A stretch of 56,184 nucleotides of DNA from Christensenellaceae bacterium. Lineage in GTDB: Bacteria; Bacillota; Clostridia; Christensenellales; Borkfalkiaceae. The position numbers and the translations under genes were made by a program. The stretch covers positions 1 through 56,184 of the forward strand of contig JAZOOP010000066.1 of NCBI GenBank assembly GCA_045655065.1, read 5' to 3'. Shown piece by piece: positions 12,744-56,184 of the stretch. Position 1 is the stretch's first letter. Each line of letters opens with the position of its first letter. Below the pieces are notes generated by a model, which was given only the letters and a program-made list of their open reading frames with translations, was not told where the DNA came from and did no database searches.

Positions 12744-13408
12744 AAATTGCCCCAATCTATTGGAAGTATTCCGTGAGTAATTAAATATTTATTTGCCGTT
12801 AAAAAATGCCCGCACCCAAAAAACCCGTTATATGCAGAAAGTGGGCTTGGGTGAGCACTTTCTAAAACTAAATGTTTAGAAGTATCTATTAATTTTTTTT
12901 TGCTTTTTGCATTGTTGCCCCAAAGCAAGAAAACAACGTTTTTTCTTAATGAAGATATTTTTTCAATAATGCTATCTGTAAACTGTTCCCAACCCTTATT
13001 TTGATGAGAGTTTGGCATATGCGCCCTAACAGTTAACGCCGTGTTTAATAAAAGCACTCCTTGTTTAGCCCAATTAGTAAGGTCGCCACTAGCGGGAATA
13101 TCTATATCTAACTCTGCTTTAAGTTCCTTAAAGATATTAACAAGTGATGGCGGTTTTTCTATGCCGTTTGGCACGGAAAAAGAAAGCCCCATTGCTTGAC
13201 CTTCGTTATGATAAGGGTCTTGCCCCAATAAAACTACCTTAATAGAATTAAAAGGGGTTAACTTCATACTATTAAAAATGTTGTACATAGAAGGATACAC
13301 GGTATAGTTAGAATATTCGCTTTTTAAAAACTCTCTTAAGGTTTGGTAGTTTTCGCTAGCAAATTCTTCGTTTAATATCTCATCCCACTCTTTTGTAATT
13401 TTAACCAT
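12740..13408 (-). CDS. ung: Uracil-DNA glycosylase (family 1)
   Basis: VLLGQDPYH, LLLNTALTV and HPSPLS motifs. Confidence 0.95.
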   Translation of the reverse strand: MVKITKEWDEILNEEFASENYQTLREFLKSEYSNYTVYPSMYNIFNSMKLTPFNSIKVVLLGQDPYHNEGQAMGLSFSVPNGIEKPPSLVNIFKELKAELDIDIPASGDLTNWAKQGVLLLNTALTVRAHMPNSHQNKGWEQFTDSIIEKISSLRKNVVFLLWGNNAKSKKKLIDTSKHLVLESAHPSPLSAYNGFFGCGHFLTANKYLITHGILPIDWGNL

Positions 13409-13445
13409 AATTAATACACTATATATTATATAATATCATTTTCTT

Positions 13446-13474
13446 TTGACAAAATCAATATAATTATATATACT
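13446..13474 (+). promoter_or_regulatory. Sigma-A promoter for mntP
   Basis: TTGACA (13446-13451), a 17-nt spacer, then TATACT (13469-13474). Confidence 0.55.
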
Positions 13475-13503
13475 AAAAGAATAAAAAAATTAGGAAAACG
13501 AAA

Positions 13504-14109
13504 ATGAGTGTTTTAGACGTTATTTTAATAGGCGCAGTTTTGGCAATAGACGCTTTTGCATTAACCATAGCCAACTGCACCACTTATAAAAATTGTTTAG
13601 TTGGCAAAAAAGGGTTAAAACTACCTATTACATTTGGGTTGTTTCAAGGAATAATGCCGTTGCTTGGTTATTTTGTTGGACTACTAATAAATTTAGCATC
13701 TAACGGGTTTATTGAAAAAATTTCCGGTTACTTAACCTTTGCAATCTTTTTAATTTTAGCAACTAAAATAGTAATAGATAACGTAAAAGAAATTATTGAG
13801 TGCAATAAAGAGCAAGAAATAACAAACTGTCCTTGCCAAGAAAAAGAAACAAACCTAACTCTTCCTATTTTGCTTTTACAAGGACTTGCCACTAGTATAG
13901 ATGCTTTTGCAGTAGGTTTAACCTTTATTTCGGTACAATTTTCCGTTTACGTTGCCGTTCTAATTATTGCTCTAATAACTTTTGTGTTAGTTTTGTTAGC
14001 CTTGTTTGCAGGTAAAGCACTAGGCAAAATATTTGGTAAATATGCAGAGTGGGCGGGTGCAGTAATTTTACTAGCCCTTGCAATAAAGGCACTTGTTGGT
14101 GCGTTATAA
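13504..14109 (+). CDS. mntP: Manganese efflux pump MntP (DUF204)
   Basis: Two DUF204 repeats (AIDAFALT and SIDAFAVG) and about six TM helices. Confidence 0.85.
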   Translation: MSVLDVILIGAVLAIDAFALTIANCTTYKNCLVGKKGLKLPITFGLFQGIMPLLGYFVGLLINLASNGFIEKISGYLTFAIFLILATKIVIDNVKEIIECNKEQEITNCPCQEKETNLTLPILLLQGLATSIDAFAVGLTFISVQFSVYVAVLIIALITFVLVLLALFAGKALGKIFGKYAEWAGAVILLALAIKALVGAL

Positions 14110-14140
14110 ATTGCTATATAATATATATAATGTTTATAAA

Positions 14141-14170
14141 AAACGAACCTAGAATTTTCTAGGTTCGTTT
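14141..14170. terminator. Bidirectional terminator shared by mntP (+) and the 922-aa lipoprotein gene (-)
   Basis: CGAACCTAG-aatttt-CTAGGTTCG stem flanked by A- and T-runs. A near-identical copy lies at 17455-17478. Confidence 0.8.
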
Positions 14171-14179
14171 TTTTATTAT

Positions 14180-16948
14180 TTAATCAAAAATATCTTGTGC
14201 GTAAAATTCTAAGTCGCTTTCTATATAACCCCAAACTACTGGGCGATTTGAATAGTTCCAATCATAATCCCAACCACTTGGCTTACTTTCTGCTTCGCAA
14301 TAAATTGTTAATGAACTGCAACCAGAGAACGCCCCAGCACCTATACTTGTTACACTTTTTGGTATTTCTATTGCTTCTAATGAACTGCAATTACAGAACG
14401 CAACATAACCTATACTTGTTACACTGTTTGGTATTACTATACTTGTTAAATTACTGCACCCATAGAACGCAGAAGAACCTATACTTGTTACACTGTTGCC
14501 TATAGTTACGCTTGTTAATGAACTGCAATTACAGAACGCATCTTCACCTATACTTGTTACACTGTTGCCTATAGTTACACTTGTTAATAAATCGCAATAA
14601 CAGAACGCTTTATAACCTATACTTGTTACACTGTTTCCTATGGTTACACTTGTTAATGAATCGCACATATAGAACGCATAATCATTTATTTTTGTTGCTG
14701 TAGTTATATTTGCTTCTGTTACTAATTCATTGTTTATGTATAAGTTTTTAGCATGTAATAATGGGTTTGAATCTAAATCAGCAAATTCTATTTGCACCCA
14801 CTTATCTATTGTGCCTAAATAGTTTACTTTTGTTAATGAATCGCAATAATAGAACGCATTGTCACCTATACTTGTTACACTGTTTCCTATGGTTACACTT
14901 GTTAATGACTCGCAATATGAGAACGCAGCATAACCTATAATTGTTACACTGTCTCCTATGGTTACACTTGTTAATGATAAGCACATATAGAACGCCTCAT
15001 AACCTATACTTGTTACACTGTTTGGTATTTCTATTGCTTTTAAATCGCAATATTTGAACGCAGAATCACCTATACTTGTTACACTGTTTGGTATTTCTAT
15101 TGCTTTTAAATCGCAATTAAAAAACGTAGCCTCACCTATACTTGTTACGCTGTTTGGTATTTCTATGCTTGTTAATGACTCGCACTCACAGAACGCCACA
15201 TCACCAATACTTGTTACACTGTTTGGTATTACTATACTTGTTAAATTACTGCACCCATAGAACGCAGCATAACCTATAAATTTACAATTTTCGTTTATAT
15301 TGGCTGTGAAAATATACTTTGAAGTTACACTTGCTAAATATAAATATGGGTTTTCTTCATTGCCTAAATATTTTAGGTTTTCTTCTATATTATAAGTTAA
15401 ATTACTGCAACCAGAGAACGCCTCATCACCTATACTTGTTACACTGTTTGGTATTTCTATTGCTTCTAATGAACTGCAACCAAAGAACGCATCAGAACCT
15501 ACAAACCTACAATTATTGTTTATTGTTGCTGTTGTAAGATTTTTATCTGCAACACTTAAAAGATATAAATATTTATTATTTTCGTTGCCTAAATAGTTTA
15601 AACTGCTTTCTGTATTATAATTTAATGAACTGCAACCTTCAAATGCATAATCACCTATACTTGTTACACTGTTTGGTATTACTATACTTGTTAATTTACT
15701 ACAGCCAGAGAACGCAGAAGAACCTATACTTTTAACGGGCTTGCCTTCATATTCTTCTGCTATAATAATTTTTTTTGCAGTACCTTCATAGCCGATTACT
15801 TTTGCATAAGTGCCATCGGAAGAAATGTCATATATAACGCCCTCTGTTGCTCCTATTATTGCGTTACAAGTAGTGCAATAGCCAGAACCATCTGAAATAT
15901 GTTCTGCAATGTCTTTTGTTGCATCACAGTCGTTACACTTTATCCAATGGAAAGTATTATCTGTTGTATACGTTACTTGCCACTTATGGTCTGAAATAGG
16001 CGTATAATTTACTAGTTCTTCTATTCCACATATTGTACAAATTTTGTGGTCGTAACCTTGCGATTGGCAAGTTGGCTCTATTGTTTCAACTTCAAAGTCG
16101 TGGTCTTCATAAGTACCGTGCAAAAACTGTATTTCGTTACAAGTTTCGCATACGTGGTAAAATATTTTATTTTCGCAAGTATTGCCTTCATTGCCAAAAA
16201 CTATTAATTTCCCAAAAGTATGTACGTGCTCATTTTGTATTATGTTTTCTAATTCTGCAACCCTATCTAAAAGGGCATTTATAACTTCTCCTTGGGTTGC
16301 ATTTGTGGTTTTAATTTCTGCAATAAGGCTATTGATTTCTGCTAGTTTTGAATTGTAACCAGTGTTTATTTCTTCTATTTTGTTTTCTAGTTCATTTTTG
16401 TTTGTTTGTAATTGTGTGGTTAAATCACTTATACTGTTTTCTAACGTTTCTACTTCTTCTAAATATTTAGCGTCAAGGTTAGCCAAGGCCTGTTCAGTCG
16501 CTAAGTCCTTTTCTTGTAAGTCTGCTAAAGCTTCTTCATATTCATTTCTTAATGTTGTTATCGCTTCTTCTGTTGCTAAGTCCTTTTCTTGTAAGTCCGC
16601 TAAAGCTTCTTCGTATTCATTTCTTAAAGTTGCTAGTGCTTGTTCAGTCGCTAAGTCTTTTTCTTGTAAGTCTGCTAAAGCTTCTTCATATTCACTTCTT
16701 AAGGTTGTTAGCGCCTGTTCGTTTTCGGCTATTGTTGCCGAAAGTTCATTATCTTTTGCTTTATACTCTTCTGTCAATGCGTTTATTTTTGCTTCTAACT
16801 CTGTTTTGTTAGTATTAATTGTTGACTGAAGTTGTGCTATTAGTTCGTCTGTTTCAGTTGCCGTGTATGTTTTTTCGCAACCTGTTAACGTAAATGCCGT
16901 TAAACATAAAGTAACAATAGCCATTAGTACAATTAATAATTTTTTCAT
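14180..16948 (-). CDS. Surface lipoprotein with N-terminal coiled-coil repeats, a 10-Cys module and BspA-type leucine-rich repeats (922 aa)
   Basis: Signal peptide plus lipobox LTGC. It has 3x 25-aa heptad-like repeats and many 23-aa IPNSVTSIGxxAFxxCxSLTS LRR_5-type units. AGGAGG RBS. Confidence 0.85.
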   Translation of the reverse strand: MKKLLIVLMAIVTLCLTAFTLTGCEKTYTATETDELIAQLQSTINTNKTELEAKINALTEEYKAKDNELSATIAENEQALTTLRSEYEEALADLQEKDLATEQALATLRNEYEEALADLQEKDLATEEAITTLRNEYEEALADLQEKDLATEQALANLDAKYLEEVETLENSISDLTTQLQTNKNELENKIEEINTGYNSKLAEINSLIAEIKTTNATQGEVINALLDRVAELENIIQNEHVHTFGKLIVFGNEGNTCENKIFYHVCETCNEIQFLHGTYEDHDFEVETIEPTCQSQGYDHKICTICGIEELVNYTPISDHKWQVTYTTDNTFHWIKCNDCDATKDIAEHISDGSGYCTTCNAIIGATEGVIYDISSDGTYAKVIGYEGTAKKIIIAEEYEGKPVKSIGSSAFSGCSKLTSIVIPNSVTSIGDYAFEGCSSLNYNTESSLNYLGNENNKYLYLLSVADKNLTTATINNNCRFVGSDAFFGCSSLEAIEIPNSVTSIGDEAFSGCSNLTYNIEENLKYLGNEENPYLYLASVTSKYIFTANINENCKFIGYAAFYGCSNLTSIVIPNSVTSIGDVAFCECESLTSIEIPNSVTSIGEATFFNCDLKAIEIPNSVTSIGDSAFKYCDLKAIEIPNSVTSIGYEAFYMCLSLTSVTIGDSVTIIGYAAFSYCESLTSVTIGNSVTSIGDNAFYYCDSLTKVNYLGTIDKWVQIEFADLDSNPLLHAKNLYINNELVTEANITTATKINDYAFYMCDSLTSVTIGNSVTSIGYKAFCYCDLLTSVTIGNSVTSIGEDAFCNCSSLTSVTIGNSVTSIGSSAFYGCSNLTSIVIPNSVTSIGYVAFCNCSSLEAIEIPKSVTSIGAGAFSGCSSLTIYCEAESKPSGWDYDWNYSNRPVVWGYIESDLEFYAQDIFD
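16490..16714 (-). repeat. 3 x 75-nt in-frame tandem repeat (LxTLRxEYEEALADLQEKDLATEx)
   Basis: Three consecutive 25-aa units spanning aa 79-153 of the 922-aa protein, seen directly in the translation. Confidence 0.85.
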
Positions 16949-16960
16949 ATAAGCCTCCTA

Positions 16961-16995
16961 AAATAAAAAAGTGCGACAACCGAAGTTATCGCACT
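16961..16995 (-). terminator. Strong UUCG-tetraloop terminator hairpin inside the 5' leader, abutting the RBS of the 922-aa gene
   Basis: Minus-strand RNA GUGCGAUAAC-UUCG-GUUGUCGCAC (10 bp including one G-U) followed by UUUUUUAUUUU, then AGGAGG and ATG. Confidence 0.65.
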
Positions 16996-17018
16996 AAAAA
17001 CGCAAACTCCGTTAGTCG

Positions 17019-17167
17019 CCAAACCAATATTATGTGAAAAATGTTACTACACCTACATAAATGGAATTTGCATTTTTTACAAATTCAATATAATTAGTGT
17101 AGTAAAATAAGTGTTTTTTATTCATAAAAAAATAACACTTTTCCACAAATATTCAATTGGTTTGGCA
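17019..17167. repeat. Nested inverted repeats forming a ~150-bp imperfect palindrome in the leader of the 922-aa gene
   Basis: GCCAAACCAAT (17019-29) pairs with ATTGGTTTGGC (17157-67). TTACTACAC (17045-53) pairs with GTGTAGTAA (17098-106). GAATTTG (17065-71) pairs with CAAATTC (17081-87). Confidence 0.7.
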
Positions 17168-17173
17168 AACTTA

Positions 17174-17202
17174 GTATAACACACATTTAAAATTATATCA
17201 AG
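17174..17202 (-). promoter_or_regulatory. Candidate sigma-A promoter of the 922-aa lipoprotein gene
   Basis: Minus-strand TTGATA, a 17-nt spacer, then TGT-TATACT (extended -10). The predicted TSS falls at the outer inverted repeat. Confidence 0.45.
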
Positions 17203-17220
17203 TAATTTTTGGCAACAAAA

Positions 17221-17243
17221 AACGGCTTAAAAATTAAGCCGTT
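17221..17243 (-). terminator. Terminator following the orphan glnN 3' fragment (probably the ancestral glnN terminator)
   Basis: AACGGCTTAA-aaa-TTAAGCCGTT perfect 10-bp stem. On the minus strand it is followed by TTTTTTGTT. Confidence 0.75.
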
Positions 17244-17256
17244 TCTTTTTATTTGG

Positions 17257-17408
17257 TTTTATTTTAATATTTTACGCTATATAAAATATCTTCATAAGTT
17301 GGGTATGGCAAGAAAGATTTGCCTGTTAAAAGTTCTGCTTCATCTGCAAACTTTCTAACTTCTTTCATATCTTTAAGAATTACATCACGGCAATATTCTG
17401 CACGTTTA
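17257..17408 (-). pseudogene. Orphan 3'-terminal fragment of type III glutamine synthetase (last 48 codons, stop, and 7 nt)
   Basis: Ungapped 143/152 nt identity to 22502-22653, the true glnN 3' end. It would encode KRAEYCRDVILKDMKEVRKFADEAELLTGKSFLPYPTYEDILYSVKY* but has no upstream coding continuation. Confidence 0.9.
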
Positions 17409-17454
17409 TTGACGCTATATAATATATTGTTTATAAAGTATTTAAAAATTGAAA

Positions 17455-17478
17455 CGAACCTAGAATTTTCTAGGTTCG
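17455..17478 (-). terminator. Terminator of the 1650-aa lipoprotein gene (copy of the 14141-14170 module)
   Basis: Identical CGAACCTAG-aatttt-CTAGGTTCG hairpin. Flanking homology (GCTATATAATATAT..TGTTTATAAA) extends to 17414. Confidence 0.8.
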
Positions 17479-17496
17479 TTTTAGTTTGTTTGTTTT

Positions 17497-20400
17497 TTAT
17501 TTATCTATTACTACTATACCATTTTTAAGCAATGGTTTATTATTAGAAATATACCAAACTTCCGTGCCCATATCATTAATTAGGTTGTTTGTTACAAACC
17601 TATTTTCAGTACCAACTGCAAAGAAACCTTTTTCAATTTTATAAGAGCCGTATACTGAAGACGCATATTCATCTGGAACAACGTATACGTTAGTCATAAG
17701 CAACGTGCCAGAGCCGTGTGTTACCCTTAAATCGTTTGAAGTTACGTCTCTATTAATATCAATATAAATATTTTTAGCAGTAGCATTATTAGACACCTTC
17801 ATTAAATAACCACTTTGAGCGCCACTCCAAGTTGAATAGTTAGTGCCGTTATAGGTTGTAGCAACCCTACCCTCAATAAACCCGTCTAAAATAACGTTTT
17901 CTACGTTACCAGAACAAGATGATATTAAACTTGAAGCACCACACATTACATCCCAGAATTTTTTTACCGTTAGGTTATGAACTTCTAAGTTTCTAATTTC
18001 ACCCGTAACTTTGCCAAACACTTGTTTACCTGTAACACTTTCCCAATCGTTAGGCACAAGTTTAATGTTGTTTAGCGCATAGCCGTTACCATTAAACAAC
18101 CCACCAATATTAATACCACCTGAAACAGAAATGCCAGAGAAATTTAAATCTTTGGTCAATAACGCATAGTCGGTTGATTGAAGACTTAAAAAAGCACTTG
18201 TAGTTGAAATATATTTGTTATAAATTAATAAGTCTACAAACTTGTAGGTGTAATCGTTATAACTTATTATAATTTTTGTTCTACCACCCTTTTTAGGTGT
18301 AAGAACACCATTAATATCTATTTCGGCTACGCTTTCATCTTCAACAGTGTAAATAAAGTTGCTTGCGCTATATTTATGGTTAGAAGAAGTTTCTAAGAAA
18401 TTAACGCTAGGTGTCATTTCAAACTCACCATTACCGGTATATAGCGTTAAAGATTCTTTATAAGAAATAGTAACTTTTAATATTACGTCTACTTCGCAAT
18501 AGAAAGTATATTCCTCCCCGCCATAGGTATGAACAGCGGTTATAATAACAGGTGTGCCTTTTTGGTTAACATCTAAAGCCCTAACTACACCGTCGTTAGA
18601 AACGCTAACTAAACTTGGGTTACTAGAAGTCCATACGGTTTTTCCACCTTCTACTACGTTTCCACCTAACGTTTTAGTAATTTTAAGTTTATATTCGTTG
18701 GTGCGATATAACGTTATATCGGTAGAGTTTATGGTTACTAGTTCTACAGGTACGTTATTATCTTTAACGTTAACGTTGCACTTTAAGAAACCATCTTCAT
18801 AATAACAAATAACGTAAGCAGTTCCAACGTTTTCTGCCGTTACTAAGCCGTTTTCAGAAATTGTGCAAACACTTTCATCTAAAGAAGCCCAAACAAATTC
18901 TCCACTATAGTTTTCAATGGTAAGTTGATAAGTTTCGTTAAGAGCAATTTCTAACTCTTCATTTGAAAGTTTAACTTTTTCCTTTATAGTTTTAGAACTT
19001 ACTACACCATTTGGTAATACGATGGTTGGTAAAGATATGCAACTTTCAAATATACCTTTACCTGCACTACTTAATAGGCTGTTTTCTTCAAACACTACGC
19101 TATTTAATTTAACGCAGTAAGCAAAAGCATAATTGCCTATTGTTCTTACACTTGCAGGAATTTCTATGGTTTTTATAGATTTACAGCCGTAGAAAGAATA
19201 ATCTGAAATGCTAGTTATGTCTGTTAATTGAACGTCGGTAACTAGTGTGCCGTTTAAATATAGGTTATAACCTAAGTATAGGCTAATGCCGTTTTTTGCT
19301 ATAAAGTTAATAGCAATTTCTTTTTCAGCCCACTCTTCCATAGTGCCTATAAAGTTAATTTTTGCAATATTACTATAAACGTTAAACTCGCCCGTTAATT
19401 TTGCTACTGCACTTGCAGGTAATTCTAGTTCTTCTATGTTATTACACATATAGAAGGCTTCTGCCCCTAAACTAACTAACTCTGCACCTTCTCTAATTAT
19501 TACCTTTTCTAACTTACTACAAGAAATAAATGCTCTGTTTGCAATAGTAGTTATTGTTGAAGGAATTATAACCGAAGTTACGTTACATTTGTTAAACGCA
19601 TAATATTCTATAGTTTTTACAGGCAAGCCGTTATAGTTAGTTGCAATAATAACGTTTGTTTCCGTGCCGTTATAACCTGTAACCATAGCGTACGTGCCGT
19701 CGTTAGAAATAGAATAAGATAGCCCTTCGGTTGGCAGTTCTAAACTACAAATATCGCAAATATCGTTTGCATTGTGGTCAGTATGCGCTTGTTTATCTTT
19801 TATAGTTTCGCAATTTACACATTCTACCCAATGGAAATAACTATCCGTTGTATAAGTGCTTTCCCAACTATGTGGTAAAACAGCAGTATAATTTACCTTT
19901 TCTTCTTTGCCACATATTGTACAAATTTTATGTTCGTAACCTTGAGCAGTGCAAGTTGCATTTATTGTTTCAACATCAAATTGGTGGTCGTTATAAGAGC
20001 CGAACCTATATTCAACGTCTTCGCAATGCGTACATTCACGGTAGAATAGTTTGTTTTCGCAAGTGGTTTGGCCGTTACCAAATATTTGCCATTCTCCATA
20101 GTTATGTATATTAGGAACTTCTATAGGTGCTAAAACCGTGCCGTCTGTTAAAGTTATAACAAGCCTGCCTTGGTTATCGTATTCCATTTTTTCTATAGTT
20201 GCGCAAGCATCACCGATTTCGCCATATGCGTTATACTCTGTTTTAACGCCGTCTATTACCCAATACCCGTCGTTGCTTATTTCTATATTTGGAATAACGC
20301 CGTCGTTGCCGTCTGCACCATTTGAGCCATTTGCTCCGTCTTGCCCGTTAGAGCCAACTGCTTTATATTCGGTTTTAACTCCGTTAATTACCCAATACCC

Positions 20401-22449
20401 ATCTTGGCTTATTTCTATGGTTGGAACAACTCCGTCTTTGCCGTCTTCGCCATTTGCTCCGTTAGAGCCGTTTTGCCCGTTAGCACCAATTGCCTTGTGT
20501 TCGGTTTTAACTCCATCAATAACCCAATACCCGTCTTGGCTAATTTCTATAGTTGGAACTTTTCCGTCGTTGCCGTTAGAGCCGTTTGTTCCGTCTGAGC
20601 CTATTGCTTTATATTGGGTTTTTTCTCCGTTAATTACCCAATAACCGTCTTGGCTAATTTCTATAGTTGGAACTTTTCCGTCGTTGCCGTCTGCACCATT
20701 TGAGCCATTTGCTCCGTCTTGCCCGTTAGAGCCAACTGCCTTATATTCGGTTTTAACTCCGTTAATTACCCAATATCCGTCTTCGCTGATATCTATGGTT
20801 GGAACAACTCCGTCTTTACCATCTTCGCCATTAGCGCCGTTAGAGCCGTTTTGCCCGTTAGAGCCAACTGCCTTATGCTCGGTTTTTTCGCCGTTGATTA
20901 TCCAATATCCGTCTTGGCTAATTTGTATAGTTGGAACTTCACCGTCAGCACCATTTGCGCCGTTTGCTCCGTCTTCGCCAACTGCTTTATATTGGGTTTT
21001 TTCGCCGTTGATTACCCAATATCCGTCTTGACTAATTTCTATAGTTGGAACAACTCCGTCTTTACCATCTTCGCCATTAGCGCCGTTAGAGCCGTTTTGC
21101 CCGTTAGCACCAATTGCCTTGTGTTCGGTTTTAACTCCATCAATAACCCAATACCCGTCTTGACTAATTTCTATAGTTGGCATTAAACTATTTCCGTCGT
21201 CGGTAGCAATTGCCTTATGTTCAGTTTTAACGCCGTTAATTACCCAATAACCATCTTGGCTTACTTGTATGGTTGGAACAACTCCATCTACGCCGTCTTT
21301 TCCGTTTGTGCCGTCTTGCCCGTCTTGACCATCTTCACCAATAGCCTTGTATTCGGTTTTAACTCCGTTTATAACCCAATATCCGTCTTCACTAATTTCT
21401 ATTGAAGGGGTTACTCCGTCAACGCCGTTTGTACCATTTGTACCGTTTTGCCCGTCTTGACCATCTTCACCAATAGCCTTGTATTCGGTTTCAACCCCAT
21501 TAATAACCCAATAGCCATCTTCACTAATTTCTATTGAAGGGGTTACTCCATCAACGCCGTTTGAACCATTTGTACCGTTTGCGCCGTTTTGACCATTAGA
21601 GCCAATGGCCTTATATTCGGTTTCAACTCCGTTAATTACCCAATATCCGTCTTCACTAATTTCTATTGAAGGTATTACTCCGTCTTCGCCGTTTGAACCA
21701 TTTGTACCGTTTGCGCCATTTTGACCATTAGAGCCAATGGCTTTATACTCGGTTTTAACTCCGTTAATTACCCAATAGCCGTCTTGGCTAATTTCTATTG
21801 AAGGGGTAACGCCGTCTTCGCCGTTAGAGCCGTTTGCTCCGTCGTTTCCAATAGCCTTATGCTCGGTTTTAACTCCGTTAATAACCCAATAGCCGTCTTC
21901 ACTAATTTCTATAGTTGGTATTTCGCCGTCAGTGCCATTATCACCATTTGCTCCGTTAGAGCCATTAGCACCATTATAGCCAACTGCTTTATATTGGGTT
22001 TTTTCGCCGTTTATTACCCAATAGCCGTCTCCACTAACTTCTATAGTTGGTATTAAACCATCTGCACCATTAGCACCATTTGTGCCGTTTGCACCATTAG
22101 AACCATTAGAGCCAACTGCCTTATATTCAGTTTTTACACCATTAATTACCCAATATCCGTCTTCGCTGATATCTATTGAAGGGGTTACTCCGTTTTCGCC
22201 GTCTTCGCCGTCTTCACCCTTATCGCCTTTATCACCTTTGTCGCCCTTATCGCCTTTTTCACCCTTAATGGTTTCTAACCATTCTTCATAACTTAGTGGT
22301 GTTTGGCCATCTGTTTGCATTTGGGCTACGTATAAATTGTATTTTTCATAACTTTCGCCACTCTGTTTATTACCACAACCAATTACTGCAAACGCAGAAA
22401 CACTCGCGATTAACAACGTAAGTAAAAATATTAGTATTTTCTTTTTCAT
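17497..22449 (-). CDS. Giant surface lipoprotein (1650 aa) with six domain regions
   Basis: Domains in order: interrupted collagen-like repeats, 10-Cys module, BspA-type LRRs, three Big_2-like domains, and a C-terminal beta-helix-like domain. Signal peptide plus lipobox VIGC; AAAGGAG RBS. There are 16 GXY-tract/PTIEISxDGYWVINGxKTEYKAxG units. The LRR and Ig-like (VxWxSSNxxVxxVSxxGxVxA) motifs and the GGLFNGNGYALNNI motif were read from the translation. Confidence 0.85.
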   Translation of the reverse strand: MKKKILIFLLTLLIASVSAFAVIGCGNKQSGESYEKYNLYVAQMQTDGQTPLSYEEWLETIKGEKGDKGDKGDKGDKGEDGEDGENGVTPSIDISEDGYWVINGVKTEYKAVGSNGSNGANGTNGANGADGLIPTIEVSGDGYWVINGEKTQYKAVGYNGANGSNGANGDNGTDGEIPTIEISEDGYWVINGVKTEHKAIGNDGANGSNGEDGVTPSIEISQDGYWVINGVKTEYKAIGSNGQNGANGTNGSNGEDGVIPSIEISEDGYWVINGVETEYKAIGSNGQNGANGTNGSNGVDGVTPSIEISEDGYWVINGVETEYKAIGEDGQDGQNGTNGTNGVDGVTPSIEISEDGYWVINGVKTEYKAIGEDGQDGQDGTNGKDGVDGVVPTIQVSQDGYWVINGVKTEHKAIATDDGNSLMPTIEISQDGYWVIDGVKTEHKAIGANGQNGSNGANGEDGKDGVVPTIEISQDGYWVINGEKTQYKAVGEDGANGANGADGEVPTIQISQDGYWIINGEKTEHKAVGSNGQNGSNGANGEDGKDGVVPTIDISEDGYWVINGVKTEYKAVGSNGQDGANGSNGADGNDGKVPTIEISQDGYWVINGEKTQYKAIGSDGTNGSNGNDGKVPTIEISQDGYWVIDGVKTEHKAIGANGQNGSNGANGEDGKDGVVPTIEISQDGYWVINGVKTEYKAVGSNGQDGANGSNGADGNDGVIPNIEISNDGYWVIDGVKTEYNAYGEIGDACATIEKMEYDNQGRLVITLTDGTVLAPIEVPNIHNYGEWQIFGNGQTTCENKLFYRECTHCEDVEYRFGSYNDHQFDVETINATCTAQGYEHKICTICGKEEKVNYTAVLPHSWESTYTTDSYFHWVECVNCETIKDKQAHTDHNANDICDICSLELPTEGLSYSISNDGTYAMVTGYNGTETNVIIATNYNGLPVKTIEYYAFNKCNVTSVIIPSTITTIANRAFISCSKLEKVIIREGAELVSLGAEAFYMCNNIEELELPASAVAKLTGEFNVYSNIAKINFIGTMEEWAEKEIAINFIAKNGISLYLGYNLYLNGTLVTDVQLTDITSISDYSFYGCKSIKTIEIPASVRTIGNYAFAYCVKLNSVVFEENSLLSSAGKGIFESCISLPTIVLPNGVVSSKTIKEKVKLSNEELEIALNETYQLTIENYSGEFVWASLDESVCTISENGLVTAENVGTAYVICYYEDGFLKCNVNVKDNNVPVELVTINSTDITLYRTNEYKLKITKTLGGNVVEGGKTVWTSSNPSLVSVSNDGVVRALDVNQKGTPVIITAVHTYGGEEYTFYCEVDVILKVTISYKESLTLYTGNGEFEMTPSVNFLETSSNHKYSASNFIYTVEDESVAEIDINGVLTPKKGGRTKIIISYNDYTYKFVDLLIYNKYISTTSAFLSLQSTDYALLTKDLNFSGISVSGGINIGGLFNGNGYALNNIKLVPNDWESVTGKQVFGKVTGEIRNLEVHNLTVKKFWDVMCGASSLISSCSGNVENVILDGFIEGRVATTYNGTNYSTWSGAQSGYLMKVSNNATAKNIYIDINRDVTSNDLRVTHGSGTLLMTNVYVVPDEYASSVYGSYKIEKGFFAVGTENRFVTNNLINDMGTEVWYISNNKPLLKNGIVVIDK
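20221..22263 (-). repeat. 16 in-frame coding repeats of 96-132 nt
   Basis: Each unit is a GXY tract (2-6 triplets) plus a 26-aa module. The array is preceded by (GDK)n collagen-like triplets. It spans aa 63-743 of the 1650-aa protein. Units are 44, 38 or 32 aa, and blocks of 2-3 units are themselves duplicated. Confidence 0.9.
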
Positions 22450-22508
22450 CTACAGCTCCTTTTATGATAATGCATTAACTGAGTAACAATTCTTTTTTAC
22501 TTTTTATT

Positions 22509-24611
22509 TTAATATTTTACGCTATATAAAATATCTTCGTAGGTTGGGTAAGGTAAGAAAGATTTGCCTGTTAAAAGTTCTGCTTCATCTGCAAACTTTC
22601 TAACTTCTTTCATATCTTTAATAATAACGTCTCGGCAATATTCAGCACGTTTAAGAGTGCCTTTTTCGTTATCTAGTTTAATAACGTCTGCCTCTAACTT
22701 GTCTAGTGCTATAGCAAACTTATCGGTTAACTCGCTTAGTTTTTCTATTAAAGAAGTTTCTAACCTAGAGCCAAGTTTTTTACTTAGCGCTTTTTTACCT
22801 TTTAATTCTTTAAGCAAGAAACTTTCGTAAGAAATTATTGCAGGGGTAATTTCTTTTCTTGCCATATCTATAGCAGTTAAAGCCTCTATGTGAATAATAT
22901 TAGCATAGTTTTCTAATAGAATTTCCATTCTAGAAGCAATTTCGTTTTTACTTAATACCTTGTGTTTTTCAAAGGTAGCAACGTTTTTATCTTGCATAAA
23001 TAGTGGAAGAGCATCTACGGTAGTTCTTAAATTTAATAGGCCACGAGCTTTTGCTTCTTCTTCCCACTCTTTAGAATAACTATTGCCAGAAAATAAAATT
23101 CTTTTGTGCTTAATAACGGTATTTTTAATAAGTTTGTTAAGTTCTGCCTTAAAGTCTTTTGCTTTTTCTAAAACGTCGGCAAACTTGCTTAGTTCTTCGG
23201 CCACTATAGTATTTAATATGTAGTTAGGGCAAGCAATATTTTCAGAAGAGCCTACCATTCTAAATTCAAACTTATTACCTGTAAACGCAAAAGGAGAAGT
23301 TCTGTTTCTATCGGTAGAGTCTTTTGGTATAGGTGGCAAGGTAGAAATACCAATTTTTAGGTTAGAATTCTTTTTAGCCTTATATACCCCACCCGTTTCT
23401 ATTGCACTTAAAATAGCATCTAGTTCTTCGCCTAAATAAATAGAGATTATTGCTGGTGGTGCTTCTTTTTCGCCTAAACGCAAGTCATTACTAGCAGATG
23501 CAACGGAAATTCTTAACAAGTCTTGATATTCATCTACAGCCTTAATAACTGCAACTAAGAATAGTAAGAATTGTGCGTTGTCCATAGGGGTTTCACCTGG
23601 TTCTAGTAGGTTTTCACCCGTGTCGGTTACAATAGACCAGTTGTCGTGTTTACCACTGCCGTTAACGGTTGCAAAAGGTTTTTCGTGCAATAAACATACT
23701 AAGCCGTGCCTATTTGCAACGCTTTTTAATATTTCCATTGTTAATTGGTTTTGGTCGCTAGCAATGTTACAAGAAACGTAAATTGGCGCAAGTTCGTGTT
23801 GGCTTGGCGCAACTTCGTTATGTTTAGTTTTTGCTAAAACCCCTAACTTCCAAAGTTCTTCATCTACTTCTTTCATAAAAGCAGAAACCCTGCTTTTAAT
23901 AGCGCCATAGTAGTGGTCTTCTAATTCTTGACCTTTACTTGGCCTTGCACCAAATAAAGTTCTGCCACAATGTATTAAGTCTATACGTTTTTCGTAAACA
24001 CTTTTATCAATTAAAAAATATTCTTGTTCAGCACCAACGGTAGGGGTAACCCTTTTAACCTTTTCGTTACCAAAAAGTTTTATTATTCTTAATGCTTGCT
24101 TGTTAAAAGCATCCATAGAACGTAGTAGTGGGGTTTTCTTATCTAACGCTTCGCCACCATAAGAACAGAATGCCGTTGGAATATATAAACTGCCGTCTTT
24201 AACGAAAGCATAAGAAGTAGGGTCCCAAGCGGTGTAGCCCCTTGCTTCAAAAGTAGCACGTAAGCCACCAGAAGGGAAAGAAGACGCATCTGATTCACCT
24301 TTAACTAAAGATTTTTCGCTAAAGTTCATAATAACGTCGCTATCGCCTACAGGCTTAATAAAACTATCGTGTTTTTCGGCAGTAATCCCCGTCATAGGTT
24401 GGAACCAATGTGTATAATGAGTTGCACCTTTTTCTATTGCCCAATCTTTCATAGCATTTGCTACTTCTTTTGCGCATTCAATAGTTAAAGGCGTACCTGT
24501 ATTTATAGCGTTTCTAACTTCGCTATAAATTTCTTTAGACAATTTTTCTTTCATAACCTTGTCGTTAAACACCATTGTTCCAAAAATTTCGGGAACACAC
24601 ATACTTTTCAT
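22509..24611 (-). CDS. glnN: Glutamine synthetase, type III
   Basis: ~700 aa, with a GSIII N-terminal domain (THYTHWFQPMTG) and catalytic-domain motifs (NGSGKHDNWS, NRTSPFAFTGNKFEFR). Confidence 0.93.
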   Translation of the reverse strand: MKSMCVPEIFGTMVFNDKVMKEKLSKEIYSEVRNAINTGTPLTIECAKEVANAMKDWAIEKGATHYTHWFQPMTGITAEKHDSFIKPVGDSDVIMNFSEKSLVKGESDASSFPSGGLRATFEARGYTAWDPTSYAFVKDGSLYIPTAFCSYGGEALDKKTPLLRSMDAFNKQALRIIKLFGNEKVKRVTPTVGAEQEYFLIDKSVYEKRIDLIHCGRTLFGARPSKGQELEDHYYGAIKSRVSAFMKEVDEELWKLGVLAKTKHNEVAPSQHELAPIYVSCNIASDQNQLTMEILKSVANRHGLVCLLHEKPFATVNGSGKHDNWSIVTDTGENLLEPGETPMDNAQFLLFLVAVIKAVDEYQDLLRISVASASNDLRLGEKEAPPAIISIYLGEELDAILSAIETGGVYKAKKNSNLKIGISTLPPIPKDSTDRNRTSPFAFTGNKFEFRMVGSSENIACPNYILNTIVAEELSKFADVLEKAKDFKAELNKLIKNTVIKHKRILFSGNSYSKEWEEEAKARGLLNLRTTVDALPLFMQDKNVATFEKHKVLSKNEIASRMEILLENYANIIHIEALTAIDMARKEITPAIISYESFLLKELKGKKALSKKLGSRLETSLIEKLSELTDKFAIALDKLEADVIKLDNEKGTLKRAEYCRDVIIKDMKEVRKFADEAELLTGKSFLPYPTYEDILYSVKY

Positions 24612-24656
24612 AAAATACTCCTAAAAAAATGTATACTAATTCATTATATATAAGAA

Positions 24657-24685
24657 ATTTTAACATTTATATACATAAATGTCAA
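24657..24685 (-). promoter_or_regulatory. Sigma-A promoter of glnN with an embedded 8-4-8 palindrome
   Basis: Minus-strand TTGACA (24685-24680), a 17-nt spacer, then TAAAAT (24662-24657). ACATTTAT-atac-ATAAATGT (24663-24682) fills the spacer. Confidence 0.6.
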
Positions 24686-24784
24686 CTTAGTTATAATAAA
24701 TTACCTATTAATCGCCTCTTTTTTTATATATTTTGCAGTTAGAAAAAAAATATTTTAAAAGTAATAACGAATTTTACAAAATAA

Positions 24785-24813
24785 TTGACTAATGTAAAAA
24801 AAAATATTATACT
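24785..24813 (+). promoter_or_regulatory. Sigma-A promoter of the GMP synthase subunit gene
   Basis: TTGACT (24785-90), a 17-nt spacer, then TATACT (24808-13). Confidence 0.55.
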
Positions 24814-24861
24814 ATTTTATATAAAAATTATGTAAAAATATCGTCGGTTTTGGAGGGATTT

Positions 24862-25842
24862 ATGGATTGTAACGTTCGTCCTGCAAGTATGGAAAGAATA
24901 GTTAATTTAGAACTTGCTAACGCATTTATAGAACAAGAAGTAAATAAAGTTAGAGAACAAGTTAAAGATAAAAAGGTTTTATTAGCATTATCTGGTGGTG
25001 TAGATAGTTCTGTAGTTGCAGCACTTTTAATTAAGGCTATTGGCAAACAACTAGTTTGCGTGCACGTTAACCACGGCTTAATGCGTAAAGGTGAAAGCGA
25101 ACAAGTTATAGAAGTTTTTGGCAAAGAATTAGATGCTAACCTAATTTACGTAGACGCTACAGACCGTTTCTTAAATTTATTAGCAGGTGTTTCTGCTCCA
25201 GAACAAAAAAGAAAAATTATTGGTGGCGAATTCATTAAAGTTTTTGATGAAGAAGCAAAAAAATTAACCGATATCAACTTCTTAGCGCAAGGCACCATTT
25301 ACCCAGACATTTTAGAAAGTAAAGGTGTAAAAGCGCACCACAACGTTGGTGGACTTCCTGAAGATATGAAGTTTGAACTTGTAGAACCAATTAAACTTTT
25401 ATATAAAGACGAAGTTAGAATTGTAGGTAAAGCACTAGGCTTGCCAGATAATATGGTGTTTAGGCAACCTTTCCCAGGCCCAGGGCTTGGCGTTAGATGT
25501 TTAGGCGCTATTACGAGAGATAGATTAGAAGCGTTAAGAGAAGCCGACGCTATTTTAAGAGAAGAATTTGAAATTTGTGGCTTAGCCGAAAAAGTATGGC
25601 AATATTTTATAGCCGTTCCAGATATGAAGAGCGTTGGCGTTAGAAACGATATGCGCTACGAAGGTTGGCCTGCTATTATTAGAGCCGTTAACACGGTAGA
25701 CGCAATGACTGCAACCATTGAAGAAATACCTTACGAAGTATTACATAAAATAACCGCTAGAATTACCAACGAAGTAGAAGGTATTAACAGGGTTTTATTA
25801 GACCTAACACCAAAGCCAATTGGCACTATAGAGTGGGAATAA
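24862..25842 (+). CDS. guaA: GMP synthase ATP-pyrophosphatase/dimerisation subunit only (no glutamine amidotransferase domain)
   Basis: SGGVDSSV PP-loop, full C-terminal domain ending KPIGTIEWE. The ATG at 24862 is preceded by GGAGGG. There are only ~45 aa before the PP-loop, against ~230 aa in fused GuaA. Confidence 0.85.
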   Translation: MDCNVRPASMERIVNLELANAFIEQEVNKVREQVKDKKVLLALSGGVDSSVVAALLIKAIGKQLVCVHVNHGLMRKGESEQVIEVFGKELDANLIYVDATDRFLNLLAGVSAPEQKRKIIGGEFIKVFDEEAKKLTDINFLAQGTIYPDILESKGVKAHHNVGGLPEDMKFELVEPIKLLYKDEVRIVGKALGLPDNMVFRQPFPGPGLGVRCLGAITRDRLEALREADAILREEFEICGLAEKVWQYFIAVPDMKSVGVRNDMRYEGWPAIIRAVNTVDAMTATIEEIPYEVLHKITARITNEVEGINRVLLDLTPKPIGTIEWE

Positions 25843-25868: not shown

Positions 25869-26279
25869 ATGGATAGAAAATTTAATAAATTCTTTTACGT
25901 ATTGGTACACGTTTTAGAATATATAATAGCAGTATTAACCATTATTGTTTTGCTTGGTTTACTTGGGCTTGAAGTATATAAAATGTTTACCGTTGCAGAT
26001 TATTTTGCTTCGGCAGATACTTTTCTTAAAAACGTGTTAACAATAGTTGTAGGGCTAGAATTTGTTAGAATGTTAATTAACCTAACACCTGCTAACACTT
26101 TAGAAGTTTTAATAGTGGCAATAGCAAGGCAAGTTATTATTAACCACGATAATGCTATTAGCAACCTAGTTTGCGTCGCTTGTATTGCAGGGCTATTTGC
26201 AATTCGTAAATTCTTAATTTCTAAAAACGATTATAAGAAAGGTCTTTCTGAAGAATTAGAAGATTCTTCTAATAAATAA
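25869..26279 (+). CDS. psiE: PsiE-family (phosphate-starvation-inducible) membrane protein
   Basis: Four TM helices with the GLEFVRML / IAIARQVI pattern typical of PsiE. Confidence 0.6.
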   Translation: MDRKFNKFFYVLVHVLEYIIAVLTIIVLLGLLGLEVYKMFTVADYFASADTFLKNVLTIVVGLEFVRMLINLTPANTLEVLIVAIARQVIINHDNAISNLVCVACIAGLFAIRKFLISKNDYKKGLSEELEDSSNK

Positions 26280-26303
26280 ATTAAATAAAAAATAAAAAAA
26301 TTA

Positions 26304-26330
26304 AAAACGCATGCAAACGCTTGCGTTTTT
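26304..26330 (+). terminator. Terminator after psiE (module shared with 26813-26840)
   Basis: ACGCATGC-aaac-GCTTGCGT stem followed by a T-run. It is followed by CTAGTTAACAATTA, as in the second copy. Confidence 0.7.
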
Positions 26331-26364
26331 TTCTAGTTAACAATTATTTTTTATTGCTCTTACC

Positions 26365-26393
26365 TTGACTAGCAACTTTTTCACTGTTATAAT
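26365..26393 (+). promoter_or_regulatory. Sigma-A promoter of zinc-ribbon membrane gene 1
   Basis: TTGACT, a 17-nt spacer, then TATAAT. Confidence 0.6.
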
Positions 26394-26434
26394 ATACATA
26401 TATTAATACTTATACAATGTTCAAAGGAGAAAAA

Positions 26435-26782
26435 ATGTACTGTAGAATTTGTGGAAAAGAGATAAACGACCAAGCAGTTATTTGCCCACATTGCGGATGC
26501 GCAACTAAGGAAACACCAATTCAACCTACCAGAAGTAAACAATTAAACGTATTATCTTTACTAGGCTTTATTTTTTCATTAGTTAGTTTATTAATAGCGC
26601 TTTTTGGTTCGGTTGCCCTAGCAGGTTTAATATGCTCTATACTAGGTCTTGTTCAAACAAAAAATAATACTCAACAATTTGGAAAAGGGTTTGCAATTGC
26701 AGGTATTTGCGTTTCTGTAGGCTCTCTTGCATATACCGTTTACGTAGTAATGATTTATTACATTTTATTAATGGGCGTATAA
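26435..26782 (+). CDS. Zinc-ribbon (CxxC-x14-CxxC) membrane protein, paralog 1
   Basis: MYCRICGKEINDQAVICPHCGC followed by two or three TM helices. The ATG at 26435 is preceded by AAAGGAG. About 60% identical to 27170..27523. Confidence 0.75.
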   Translation: MYCRICGKEINDQAVICPHCGCATKETPIQPTRSKQLNVLSLLGFIFSLVSLLIALFGSVALAGLICSILGLVQTKNNTQQFGKGFAIAGICVSVGSLAYTVYVVMIYYILLMGV

Positions 26783-26812
26783 AAACTAATTACCTATAGT
26801 TATATAAAAACT

Positions 26813-26840
26813 AAAACGCAAGCAAACGCTTGCGTTTTTT
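26813..26840 (+). terminator. Terminator after zinc-ribbon gene 1
   Basis: ACGCAAGC-aaac-GCTTGCGT perfect stem followed by TTTTTT. Confidence 0.75.
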
Positions 26841-26884
26841 CTAGTCAATTATATGCTCTACTAAAGGCTCTTTAATTATATTTT

Positions 26885-27091
26885 TTATTTATTTATTTTT
26901 GGGTTTTCCGTTCGTTCCAATAAATAATCTATAGACACGTTAAAATAATCGGCAAAAGCAATTAAAGTTTTGTAATCTGCTTCTCTTTGCCCATTTTCGT
27001 ACCTGCTAATACTATTTTGATTCATATTCAAATCCATCGCCATTTTTAACTGCGATATTTTTCTGCTTTTTCTTAAAACTTTTAATCTCAT
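26885..27091 (-). CDS. XRE-family HTH regulator (68 aa)
   Basis: The sequence ISQLKMAMDLNMNQNSISRYENGQREADYKTLIAFADYFNVSIDYLL matches HTH_3. It is divergent from zinc-ribbon gene 2. Confidence 0.85.
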   Translation of the reverse strand: MRLKVLRKSRKISQLKMAMDLNMNQNSISRYENGQREADYKTLIAFADYFNVSIDYLLERTENPKINK

Positions 27092-27095
27092 ATCC

Positions 27096-27124
27096 TTGAC
27101 ATAATTATACCAACTTGGTATAAT
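27096..27124 (+). promoter_or_regulatory. Sigma-A promoter of zinc-ribbon gene 2 with an overlapping palindromic operator
   Basis: TTGACA, a 17-nt spacer, then TATAAT. ATACCAA-c-TTGGTAT (27107-27121) spans the spacer and -10. An extra TTGGTAT half-site lies at 27139-27145. Confidence 0.6.
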
Positions 27125-27169
27125 AAATATATCCCGTTTTGGTATATTACATTAAGGAGAAATATAAAA

Positions 27170-27523
27170 ATGTTTTGTAAAGTTTGTGGAAAAGAAATTA
27201 ACGACCAAGCAGTTGTTTGCCCAAATTGTGGGTGTGCCATAAGCGACACCCCAATTCAACAACCAACCGAAGAAAAAAAGCAAAAAGTTAACGTATTAGC
27301 CATTGTAGGTTTTGTTCTTTCTCTTGCAAGTTTGCTTTTAGCACTTTGGGGCACAGTTGCTATTGCTGGTTTAGTTTGTTCTATAATAGGTTTAGTTCAA
27401 ATAAAAAATAGCGACCAAGGTGGACGTGGACTTGCAATTGCAGGTATTTGCGTTTCTGTAGGCTCTCTTGCATACACGTGTTATAGTTTAATAACCTTAC
27501 TAACTATTTTAGGTTCATTATAA
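27170..27523 (+). CDS. Zinc-ribbon membrane protein, paralog 2
   Basis: MFCKVCGKEINDQAVVCPNCGC followed by TM helices. AAGGAG RBS. Confidence 0.8.
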   Translation: MFCKVCGKEINDQAVVCPNCGCAISDTPIQQPTEEKKQKVNVLAIVGFVLSLASLLLALWGTVAIAGLVCSIIGLVQIKNSDQGGRGLAIAGICVSVGSLAYTCYSLITLLTILGSL

Positions 27524-55444: not shown

Positions 55445-56184
55445 ATGTGTATTTTTGGCTGTAATCGTTGTGGTAATAATTTTGGAAACAACGGTTTTAC
55501 AAATTACGGCTACGGAAATTATTCATTAAATAGAAACTATAACGATTGTTTTTTTAGTAGAAACTACAATAACAACGGTCGTTGTTGCAACCAAACACCA
55601 AGATTTATAATTGCAACCCAAACCATAAGGGGCCCTATCGGTCCGCAAGGTCCAATAGGTCCTGCCGGTCCACAAGGACCACAAGGTTTACAAGGTCCTA
55701 TTGGTTTAACTGGTGCAACTGGCCCACAAGGCCCTACAGGTGCAACCGGTGCTACTGGACCACAAGGTCCAATTGGTTTAACTGGTGCTACTGGCCCACA
55801 AGGTCCGCAAGGTTTGCAAGGTCCAATAGGTCCTGCCGGTCCACAAGGTGAAACTGGTGCAACTGGCGCAACGGGCCCACAAGGTCCACAAGGTGTACCT
55901 GGTGACCCTGCTATAAGCGACGTAGTTTATGCTACTGCAAGCGACGTAGCAGTTGAACCAAACGCAATTATTCCACTTACCTTAAACGATTCAACTTCAA
56001 CTTCTACGATGAGTGTTTCTGGTGGCTCTGTTGTAGTTCCAGAAGCAGGTAAATATTTAGTTAGTTATTTCTTTAACAACGTTGCTACTACAACGGACAC
56101 GGACGTTACTCTTTATTTAAATGGCGTTGCCGTTACTGATGAAAGTGTAAACGCTAGCACTAACGCAACTGCAAGTAAAACTAT
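55445..56184 (+). CDS. Collagen-like (GXY)31 protein with a BclA-C-terminal-like domain, 3'-partial (runs off the window; absent from the ORF track)
   Basis: My own translation from the ATG at 55445 (AAAGGAGAAAAAAG RBS) is open to the window end. It reads [16 protein letters not shown]...[17 protein letters not shown]...[17 protein letters not shown]...[10 protein letters not shown]. Confidence 0.85.
55631..55909 (+). repeat. 31 uninterrupted Gly-X-Y triplets (collagen triple-helix region)
   Basis: Counted directly: [30 protein letters not shown] ... GVP GDP. Confidence 0.9.

Follow-up and report, generated by a model that had tools for sequence, protein, structure and literature searches.

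A second glnN 3′ end next to a surface lipoprotein gene as the probable scar of a joining of two diverged haplotypes

In this study, we analyse a duplicated 3′ end of glnN, the gene for type III glutamine synthetase, in a 56,184-nucleotide (nt) stretch of DNA from a Christensenellaceae bacterium (contig JAZOOP010000066.1 of assembly GCA_045655065.1). This whole stretch is called the window in the following, and all coordinates refer to it unless another contig is named. We will argue that the second glnN end is probably the scar left when two diverged haplotypes of one hypervariable locus were joined head to tail by one illegitimate joint. A scar of this origin would represent an ordinary type of genome rearrangement in bacteria rather than a mobile element, and it would be a well-resolved case of a known event, unsurprising to the specialist. 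As read from its sequence, the region between glnN and the neighbouring gene mntP is built of two units of the same construction; it is not a single insert with a repeat on either side. The whole unit, comprising a glnN end, a leucine-rich repeat (LRR) lipoprotein gene, a terminator and an mntP end, appears twice in tandem.

The genes glnN, a gene for a protein of 1650 amino acids (aa) and a gene for one of 922 aa all lie on the minus strand, while mntP is convergent with them on the plus strand. Read along the minus strand, glnN (24611-22509) is followed after 59 nt by the 1650-aa gene (22449-17497), a terminator (17481-17452) and the orphan glnN end (17408-17257). There follow a further terminator (17244-17220), a promoter-like site with a 230-nt leader, the 922-aa gene (16948-14180), a last terminator (14173-14138), and finally mntP.

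The closest relative found by protein search encodes the GlnN protein P0002, which is 94% identical to that of the window (90.3% at the nucleotide level on L081). The gene for P0002 lies on the 346-kb scaffold L081 and also on another contig, L082. According to blastn, positions 8729-12120 of L081 correspond to window 25889-22490 (89.8%), and positions 12103-22103 to window 14181-4220 (85.4%); the glnN end of L081 (11959-12115) is 92.4% identical to window 17408-17252. On both L081 and L082, glnN is followed by a 59-nt spacer with the hairpin AAACGAACCTAGAAAATTCTAGGTTCGTTT and then by mntP, with synteny on both sides and with no LRR gene at the locus. Given this short spacer in L081 and the two-sided synteny, window 22490-14181 (8.3 kb) is extra, and the two LRR genes do not belong to the ancestral locus. 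L081 also has recA within the syntenic region, which is uninformative on how the two units were joined. Other relatives add little. Exact-protein look-ups gave no record for the GlnN, MntP, UDG and 922-aa proteins of the window. The nearest GTDB species representatives have GlnN proteins of at most 76% identity with unrelated genes downstream, and are therefore uninformative on the locus. For GlnN proteins at 80% (P0003), the next gene encodes a Branch-family glycosyltransferase and not MntP.

The evidence for a second unit comes from the far side of the 1650-aa gene. Here, the glnN-mntP spacer is found once more at 17491-17408, together with its terminator and the 3′ end of mntP, a duplication that the preliminary description of this DNA had overlooked. 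The terminators after the 1650-aa and the 922-aa genes are identical, AAACGAACCTAGAAAATTCTAGGTTCGTTT, and their likeness continues past the hairpin (17482-17414 versus 14171-14113, 81% by blastn). This terminator word has two sites in the window, where none is expected by chance, and one each in L081 and L082. We also considered whether the shared terminator could be a family-wide feature of LRR genes, but this is ruled out, since L081, which lacks both LRR genes, has it as the native terminator between glnN and mntP. The correspondence to the relative covers more than the hairpin: window 17491-17405 is 84% identical to L081 12103-12180, that is, to the spacer plus the first 18 nt of mntP counted from its stop. 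After the 1650-aa gene, the minus strand reads AACAAACAAA, then the terminator, then TATAAACAATATATTATATAGCGTCAAT.

Within this segment, the copy of the native spacer (17423-17496, minus strand, with the hairpin at 17452-17481) is followed by a 15-nt relic of the last four codons and stop of mntP (17408-17422, plus strand; TTATATAGCGTCAAT in the minus-strand reading). The corresponding end in L081, TTATATAGCGCCAAT, consists of the mntP stop and the last four codons. In a three-way alignment, the relic agrees with this L081 end at 14 of 15 positions, but the agreement drops to 10 of 15 for the mntP end of the window itself, TTATAACGCACCAAC. The resident spacer (14110-14179, minus strand) has the same hairpin, at 14138-14173, and is continuous with a complete mntP.

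The mntP relic and the orphan glnN copy share base 17408, a T with which the relic ends and the copy begins. At the novel joint, 17408/17409, codon −4 of mntP (its last 15 nt) is fused to codon −48 of glnN (position −145), and the sequence shared at the joint amounts to at most 1-4 nt. In L081 coordinates, the repeated unit extends from 11959 to about 12178, or ~220 bp, and each of its two copies in the window has an LRR gene between the glnN stop and the terminator. The repeated ends are alike in order and orientation, with 94% identity between the two glnN ends and 81% between the two spacer copies, all on the minus strand.

A further feature is seen directly before the true mntP stop, where positions 14111-14122 read TTATATAGCAAT. 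This resembles a shortened second relic of the L081-type mntP end TTATATAGCGCCAAT, with the final ...CAAT in common with the relic at 17408-17422. Either an earlier event of this type at the locus or a small local duplication may have produced it.

We now consider the two glnN ends themselves. The orphan copy (17257-17408, minus strand) and the end of the working gene (22502-22653, minus strand) both comprise the last 48 codons including the stop plus 7 nt, the orphan being non-coding in its present place. They align without gaps at 143 of 152 nt (blastn 94.1%, E 7e-64), just as originally described, and a repeat search lengthens the match to 161 nt (17248-17408 and 22493-22653, 92%). Codon comparison also reproduces the earlier observation on the nature of the differences: in the glnN frame, eight of the nine are synonymous changes at third positions and one exchanges Ile and Leu at codon 11. 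When nine random substitutions were simulated on the same coding stretch, at least eight proved synonymous in 7 of 100,000 trials (P about 7e-5). With L081 as the outgroup, six changes are derived in the orphan (five synonymous and Ile to Leu) and three in the intact copy, all synonymous; the probability of at least five synonymous changes among the orphan's six is 0.003-0.006 under random substitution. Because five of its six derived changes are synonymous, the orphan appears to have changed while it was still coding. The Leu at its one replaced position is also found in more distant GlnN proteins. Simple decay in situ of a dead duplicate is ruled out by this synonymous bias together with the allele match described below. 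Beyond the two glnN stops, the sequences have only ~16 nt in common.

Immediately 5′ of the repeat, glnN has a hypervariable stretch (22654-22800, codons about 605-652), which is 71% identical to L081 at the nucleotide level, compared with about 90% elsewhere in the gene. One version of this stretch is present in L081 and in the metagenome run X1, and another in the window and in run X2.

These runs come from a word-index search with positions 16900-17700, which led to gut metagenomes from sheep, goat and other hosts, holding at most 17% of the words. In X1, for which contig differences were listed from 1% of depth, an 899-nt contig follows window 23159-22756 and then continues at 17408-17018. 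The 102 nt in between are equal in length to 22755-22654. The contig has no listed difference in 17262-17408, which covers 145 coding nt of the orphan, and its 30 nt just upstream of 17408 are those of L081 glnN (30/30). Beyond the orphan copy, it runs through the adjoining hairpin terminator (17220-17244, minus strand) and reaches 17018, with 17 differences that all fall in 17071-17261, i.e. in the terminator and the intergenic sequence. Over its second part, the contig is about 96% identical to the downstream unit of the window (17 differences and 2 gaps in 391 nt), as opposed to 88% to the window's glnN body (49 differences in 404 nt). The same join, from glnN position 22756 to 17408 with 5347 positions skipped and 102 letters between, is found in an 873-nt contig from run X5, which belongs to a different study. 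This contig has five differences of its own in the orphan copy, three of which recode codons 10-11 as ATA TTA, still Ile-Leu.

The joins in X1 and X5 indicate that there are other strains in which the orphan allele forms the end of a working glnN, with the terminator at 17220-17244 behind it; in X1, this is thus the terminator of a working glnN. Together with the outgroup polarisation, the X1 match supports the view, put forward in the preliminary description, that the two ends are functional alleles of different lineages. The empty site that had been predicted on the same occasion is recovered in X1 and X5 as far as glnN, the orphan allele and the terminator are concerned, while its remaining part, the 922-aa gene, lies beyond the reach of the contigs.

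Run X2 represents a different situation. Its glnN is 95% identical to the intact gene of the window, hypervariable stretch included, and pieces of a gene similar to the 1650-aa gene are present at about 91-92%. Two of its glnN contigs (628 and 124 nt) begin exactly at 22509, the last base of the glnN stop, and, at most a few bases away from this position, contigs of other organisms part from the window. The assembly graph accordingly branches at the glnN stop, which is consistent with strain variation that starts right after glnN. Among metagenome contigs of the Joint Genome Institute (JGI), two exact-pattern scans gave no match to a degenerate 50-mer of the repeat or to the 26-nt terminator.

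On the basis of these results, the following scenario can be proposed. In the ancestral state of this lineage, which belongs to uncultured Clostridia of the gut, glnN would be followed by a spacer of ~60 nt with the shared hairpin terminator and then by the convergent mntP. The variable site would comprise the few bases from the glnN stop to the terminator and would hold BspA-type LRR lipoprotein genes that differ by strain, or none. The first unit of the window would then consist of the last 152 nt of glnN, the 1650-aa gene, the spacer with its terminator and the last 15 nt of mntP. The second would consist of the last 152 nt of glnN, a terminator of its own, the leader, the 922-aa gene, and the spacer and terminator leading into the complete mntP. 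One parent would have been a haplotype with the intact glnN end, the 1650-aa gene, the terminator and mntP; the other would have had the glnN end now orphaned, the terminator at 17220-17244, an LRR gene, the shared terminator and mntP. The two could have been joined by unequal exchange, or by homology-facilitated illegitimate recombination (HFIR), with one end anchored by homology in glnN or mntP and the other joined illegitimately. Either side of the joint could have been the recipient, and the event would be recent enough for the displaced glnN end to remain undecayed. As a result, glnN would be intact but would have lost its own terminator, while the orphaned piece of glnN and the 15 nt left of mntP presumably have no function.

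We infer the two-haplotype origin, along with the order of events, the recombination pathway and the co-transcription discussed below, and four observations speak for this origin: eight of the nine differences between the glnN ends are synonymous, the orphan has no listed difference from the functional allele of X1, the mntP relic is L081-like at 14 of 15 positions, and the X1 contig is 96% identical to the downstream unit versus 88% to the glnN body. The agreement of the relic with the window's own mntP end at 10 of 15 positions argues against duplication within a single genome, in which case the relic would copy that end.

It should be noted that several points weigh against this scenario. 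The second parent, with glnN, the 1650-aa gene, the terminator and mntP, is present in no assembled record, and the 31-mers of the joint (66 nt around it were queried) occur in no indexed public run. At the breakpoint, TTAAA is found in both parents, but the product is one T short, so that the strict overlap is 1 nt and the microhomology that would be expected is imperfect. The X1 and X5 contigs are short; they run from glnN through the orphan allele and its terminator into the leader and do not reach the following gene. A further run, X19, has pieces of the 1650-aa gene at 99-100%, but with a depth of 2-4x and no contig across the joint. Finally, an in-situ duplication followed by allele replacement would yield the same final sequence.

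This last possibility deserves to be considered in some detail. In such a case, the segment with the glnN end, one LRR gene, the spacer and the mntP end would have been duplicated in tandem within a single lineage, and one or both units later overwritten by homologous recombination, such that the present differences are imported alleles and uninformative on the founding event. The tandem topology with a single novel joint is exactly what a duplication gives, and the two LRR genes are indeed paralogous. The locus, moreover, does turn over between strains: X1 and X5 have the orphan allele, its terminator and the leader in common, whereas the first half of the 922-aa gene is not shared, and in X2 the contigs are interrupted precisely at the glnN stop. 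On the other hand, at least two further events are required, the relic should have copied the window's own mntP end instead of resembling that of L081, and the ~16 nt common to the sequences after the two glnN stops imply that the whole interior was replaced. We therefore consider this alternative unlikely, although it should be kept in mind. An assembly artefact, in which two co-existing strains with different cassettes are stitched into one contig, is favoured by the absence of the joint from the indexed public runs, and gut metagenomes do contain several strains that differ after the glnN stop. However, with at most 1-4 nt shared by the two sides of the joint, there is no common word for an overlap or de Bruijn assembler to use, and words spanning the joint must have existed in the reads. 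Furthermore, a repeat-induced misjoin is expected inside the 152-bp repeat or the terminator, and not at the edge of the mntP relic. An artefact is thus rather improbable.

The preliminary description had drawn an analogy to elements that regenerate the 3′ end of their target, and the corresponding alternative is a site-specific integrative element that carried the 1650-aa gene into the 3′ end of glnN and supplied a replacement end, the 152-bp copies then being its attachment sites attL and attR. Direct repeats of the target 3′ end do flank a 5.2-kb insert, the target is intact and empty sites exist. The insert, however, has neither an integrase nor any second gene, and its distal 90 nt copy the chromosomal spacer, terminator and mntP end and not element DNA. 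In addition, the repeat is long and imperfect for an attachment core (152 bp, 94%), and the adjacent 922-aa gene, likewise inserted in comparison with L081, is not accompanied by repeats of this kind. The analogy could hence not be upheld, and we regard this explanation as very improbable. One may also envisage that the glnN-mntP spacer is a dedicated stacking site, to which LRR-lipoprotein cassettes are added repeatedly at reused breakpoints, as hinted by the possible second mntP relic, TTATATAGCAAT, with the same ...CAAT end. We do not expect this to be the case. If it were, a mobile unit of glnN end, cassette, terminator and mntP end would circulate between strains and integrate without a recombinase of its own, or else a site-specific activity as yet unknown would operate at the terminator or TTAAA. 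The joining of two haplotypes by one illegitimate joint remains the explanation that we favour.

We now turn to the genes of the locus. The intact glnN (22509-24611, minus strand) encodes a protein of 700 aa with the Pfam domains GSIII_N (PF12437, 260 bits), Gln-synt_C (PF00120, 65.7 bits) and Gln-synt_C-ter (PF18318, 137 bits). With the N-terminal, catalytic and C-terminal domains of the GSIII type in one protein of ~700 aa, it can be assigned as a type III glutamine synthetase. The gene at the other end, mntP (13504-14109, plus strand), belongs to the manganese efflux pump family according to its Pfam domain Mntp; it is syntenic with L081 and is the far border of the variable locus.

Both genes in between are predicted to encode lipoproteins of the BspA-type LRR family (PF13306, LRR_5), with scores of 113.8 bits for the 1650-aa protein and 375.3 bits for the 922-aa protein, against a Pfam cut-off of 27.7. 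Their N-termini, MKKKILIFLLTLLIASVSAFAVIGC and MKKLLIVLMAIVTLCLTAFTLTGC, each contain a lipobox as read by eye. The 1650-aa protein (17497-22449, minus strand) has a signal peptide that ends in AVIG|C, and collagen-like, DUF4988, BspA-type LRR_5 and Big_2 domains, whereas in the 922-aa protein (14180-16948, minus strand) the signal peptide ends in TLTG|C and LRR_5 is matched with an E value of 8e-114. The two proteins are 35% identical over 462 aa (BLASTP, E 9e-66), with a DNA repeat of 74% (D7), so that the genes are paralogues and did not arise as mere copies. The 922-aa protein is absent from L081. A search of 5.8 billion proteins gave no close orthologue for either protein, in keeping with fast turnover; the best match of the 1650-aa protein is 40% identical over 37% of the query.

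Both genes contain internal arrays. In the 1650-aa gene, units of 132 nt occur in 12 copies at 64-82% within 20195-22252, and collagen-like triplets are found near the 5′ end, while the 922-aa gene has an array of 69-nt LRR units at 14299-15746. Since the metagenome contigs have many skip and go-back joints inside these two arrays, the repeat numbers probably differ between strains. The GC content of the region is no mark of a foreign insert, the values of 0.40-0.44 at 20000-22400 reflecting the Gly/Pro-rich repeats of the 1650-aa gene.

Between the 152-bp repeats, the 1650-aa gene is the only real open reading frame (ORF), the remaining ones being overlapping out-of-frame artefacts. In agreement with the preliminary description, which had found no integrase in the window, the ORF list and Pfam reveal no integrase or recombinase in the whole 8.3 kb that are extra relative to L081. 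Two of its statements on terminators also hold. A hairpin terminator (17220-17244) directly follows the orphan copy, and the 59 nt that separate the stop of the intact glnN (22509) from the ATG of the 1650-aa gene (22449) contain neither a terminator-like nor a minus-strand promoter-like site. An AGGAG lies just 5′ of this ATG. Having a ribosome-binding site but no visible promoter, the 1650-aa gene is probably read through from glnN.

The 922-aa gene, on the other hand, is preceded by a promoter-like site, TTGATA-17-TATACT at 17201-17173, and by a structured 5′ leader (together 16949-17201, minus strand). The leader of ~230 nt has a folding energy of −67.8 kcal/mol (z = −6.4 versus shuffles), and its 3′ end contains a UUCG hairpin and a U-run (16995-16970) just before the ribosome-binding site. 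Rfam gives no family above threshold in 13000-25500 or in the leader. A match to ctRNA_pT181 at 17179-17258, with 38 bits against a cut-off of 56, was discarded as merely the terminator hairpin. The last ~60 nt of the leader (16966-17024) have a word depth of 100-1100x in four gut metagenomes, compared with 3-8x for the flanks, and on the side of the gene the metagenome contigs carry on in many different ways. This suggests that the leader is widely shared, is present in many copies and stands before different genes; it is possibly an attenuator.

Outside the locus, the segment between a guaA-like gene and rny (25869-27523) constitutes a second variable spot. The window has here two paralogous zinc-ribbon/DUF4190 genes (26417-26782 and 27170-27523; repeats D11 and D12, 81-82%), two similar terminators (D13, 26274-26331 and 26783-26840) and a gene for a 136-aa protein. 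L081 has at this spot a major facilitator superfamily (MFS) transporter, an AraC regulator, one DUF4190 gene and a helix-turn-helix (HTH) gene. Near the right end of the window, a separate gene contains a collagen-like Gly-X-Y array with a periodicity of 9, 27 and 36 nt (55645-55914).

As to the significance of these results, the locus would provide a clean natural example of a gut anaerobe that enlarges its repertoire of variable surface lipoproteins, with relics of the flanking core genes recording the event and with the empty, singly occupied and doubly occupied states all in public data. It is important to realise that a displaced gene end with a signature of purifying selection need not imply a mobile element, because recent recombination between strains mimics it. 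For annotation purposes, 17257-17408 should be given as a glnN pseudogene fragment and 17408-17422 as a 15-nt mntP relic. The probable dependence of the 1650-aa gene on glnN transcription would, if confirmed, link a surface protein to nitrogen regulation.

It is finally instructive to compare the structure with known systems. Integrative elements and genomic islands insert in the 3′ ends of genes (tRNA, tmRNA and protein-coding) and carry a replacement 3′ end. The locus is similar in having an intact target, an insert and a displaced target 3′ end, and in the empty sites of relatives. The differences are, however, substantial: there is no integrase here, the cargo is followed by the host's own spacer and mntP end, and a repeat of 152 bp at 94% takes the place of a short exact core. 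The structure is thus not a member of this class.

BspA-type LRR (LRR_5) proteins form a very large family, and their genes are among the strain-variable surface genes that occupy hotspots between core genes of host-associated anaerobes. Like such hotspots, the glnN-mntP locus is empty, singly or doubly occupied depending on the strain; what is unusual is that its mechanism of growth is legible from relics of both flanking genes.

A closer parallel is given by tandem segmental duplications, which, according to the Salmonella and E. coli work reviewed by Reams and Roth, reportedly arise by illegitimate recombination with short or no homology. Here as there, both ends of the unit are repeated head to tail, a single joint (from mntP +15 to glnN −145) has little or no homology, and a truncated gene fragment stands at the joint while the outer genes are intact. 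The units of the window, in contrast, are not copies, but contain paralogues of 35% amino acid identity, different upstream regions and flanks of different lineages. The event therefore most likely joined two haplotypes rather than doubling one.

HFIR, for its part, is known from the natural transformation of transformable bacteria (Meier and Wackernagel 2003, as summarised in PMC6382021). There, a homologous anchor and an illegitimate end join at very short microhomology add foreign DNA beside a conserved gene, as could have happened at the present locus, and the allele divergence of about 6-10% is within the range of working RecA-dependent exchange. The process is defined by an illegitimate joint at about 3-10 nt of microhomology plus a homologous anchor, the latter being only postulated in our case. 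It is, moreover, defined experimentally, and usually recipient DNA is lost at the illegitimate end, whereas here the recipient DNA would have been kept, with a duplication as the result. Overall, the locus has the layout of a tandem duplication joint, and its nearest counterparts are products of illegitimate recombination, with or without facilitation by homology, at hotspots between core genes.

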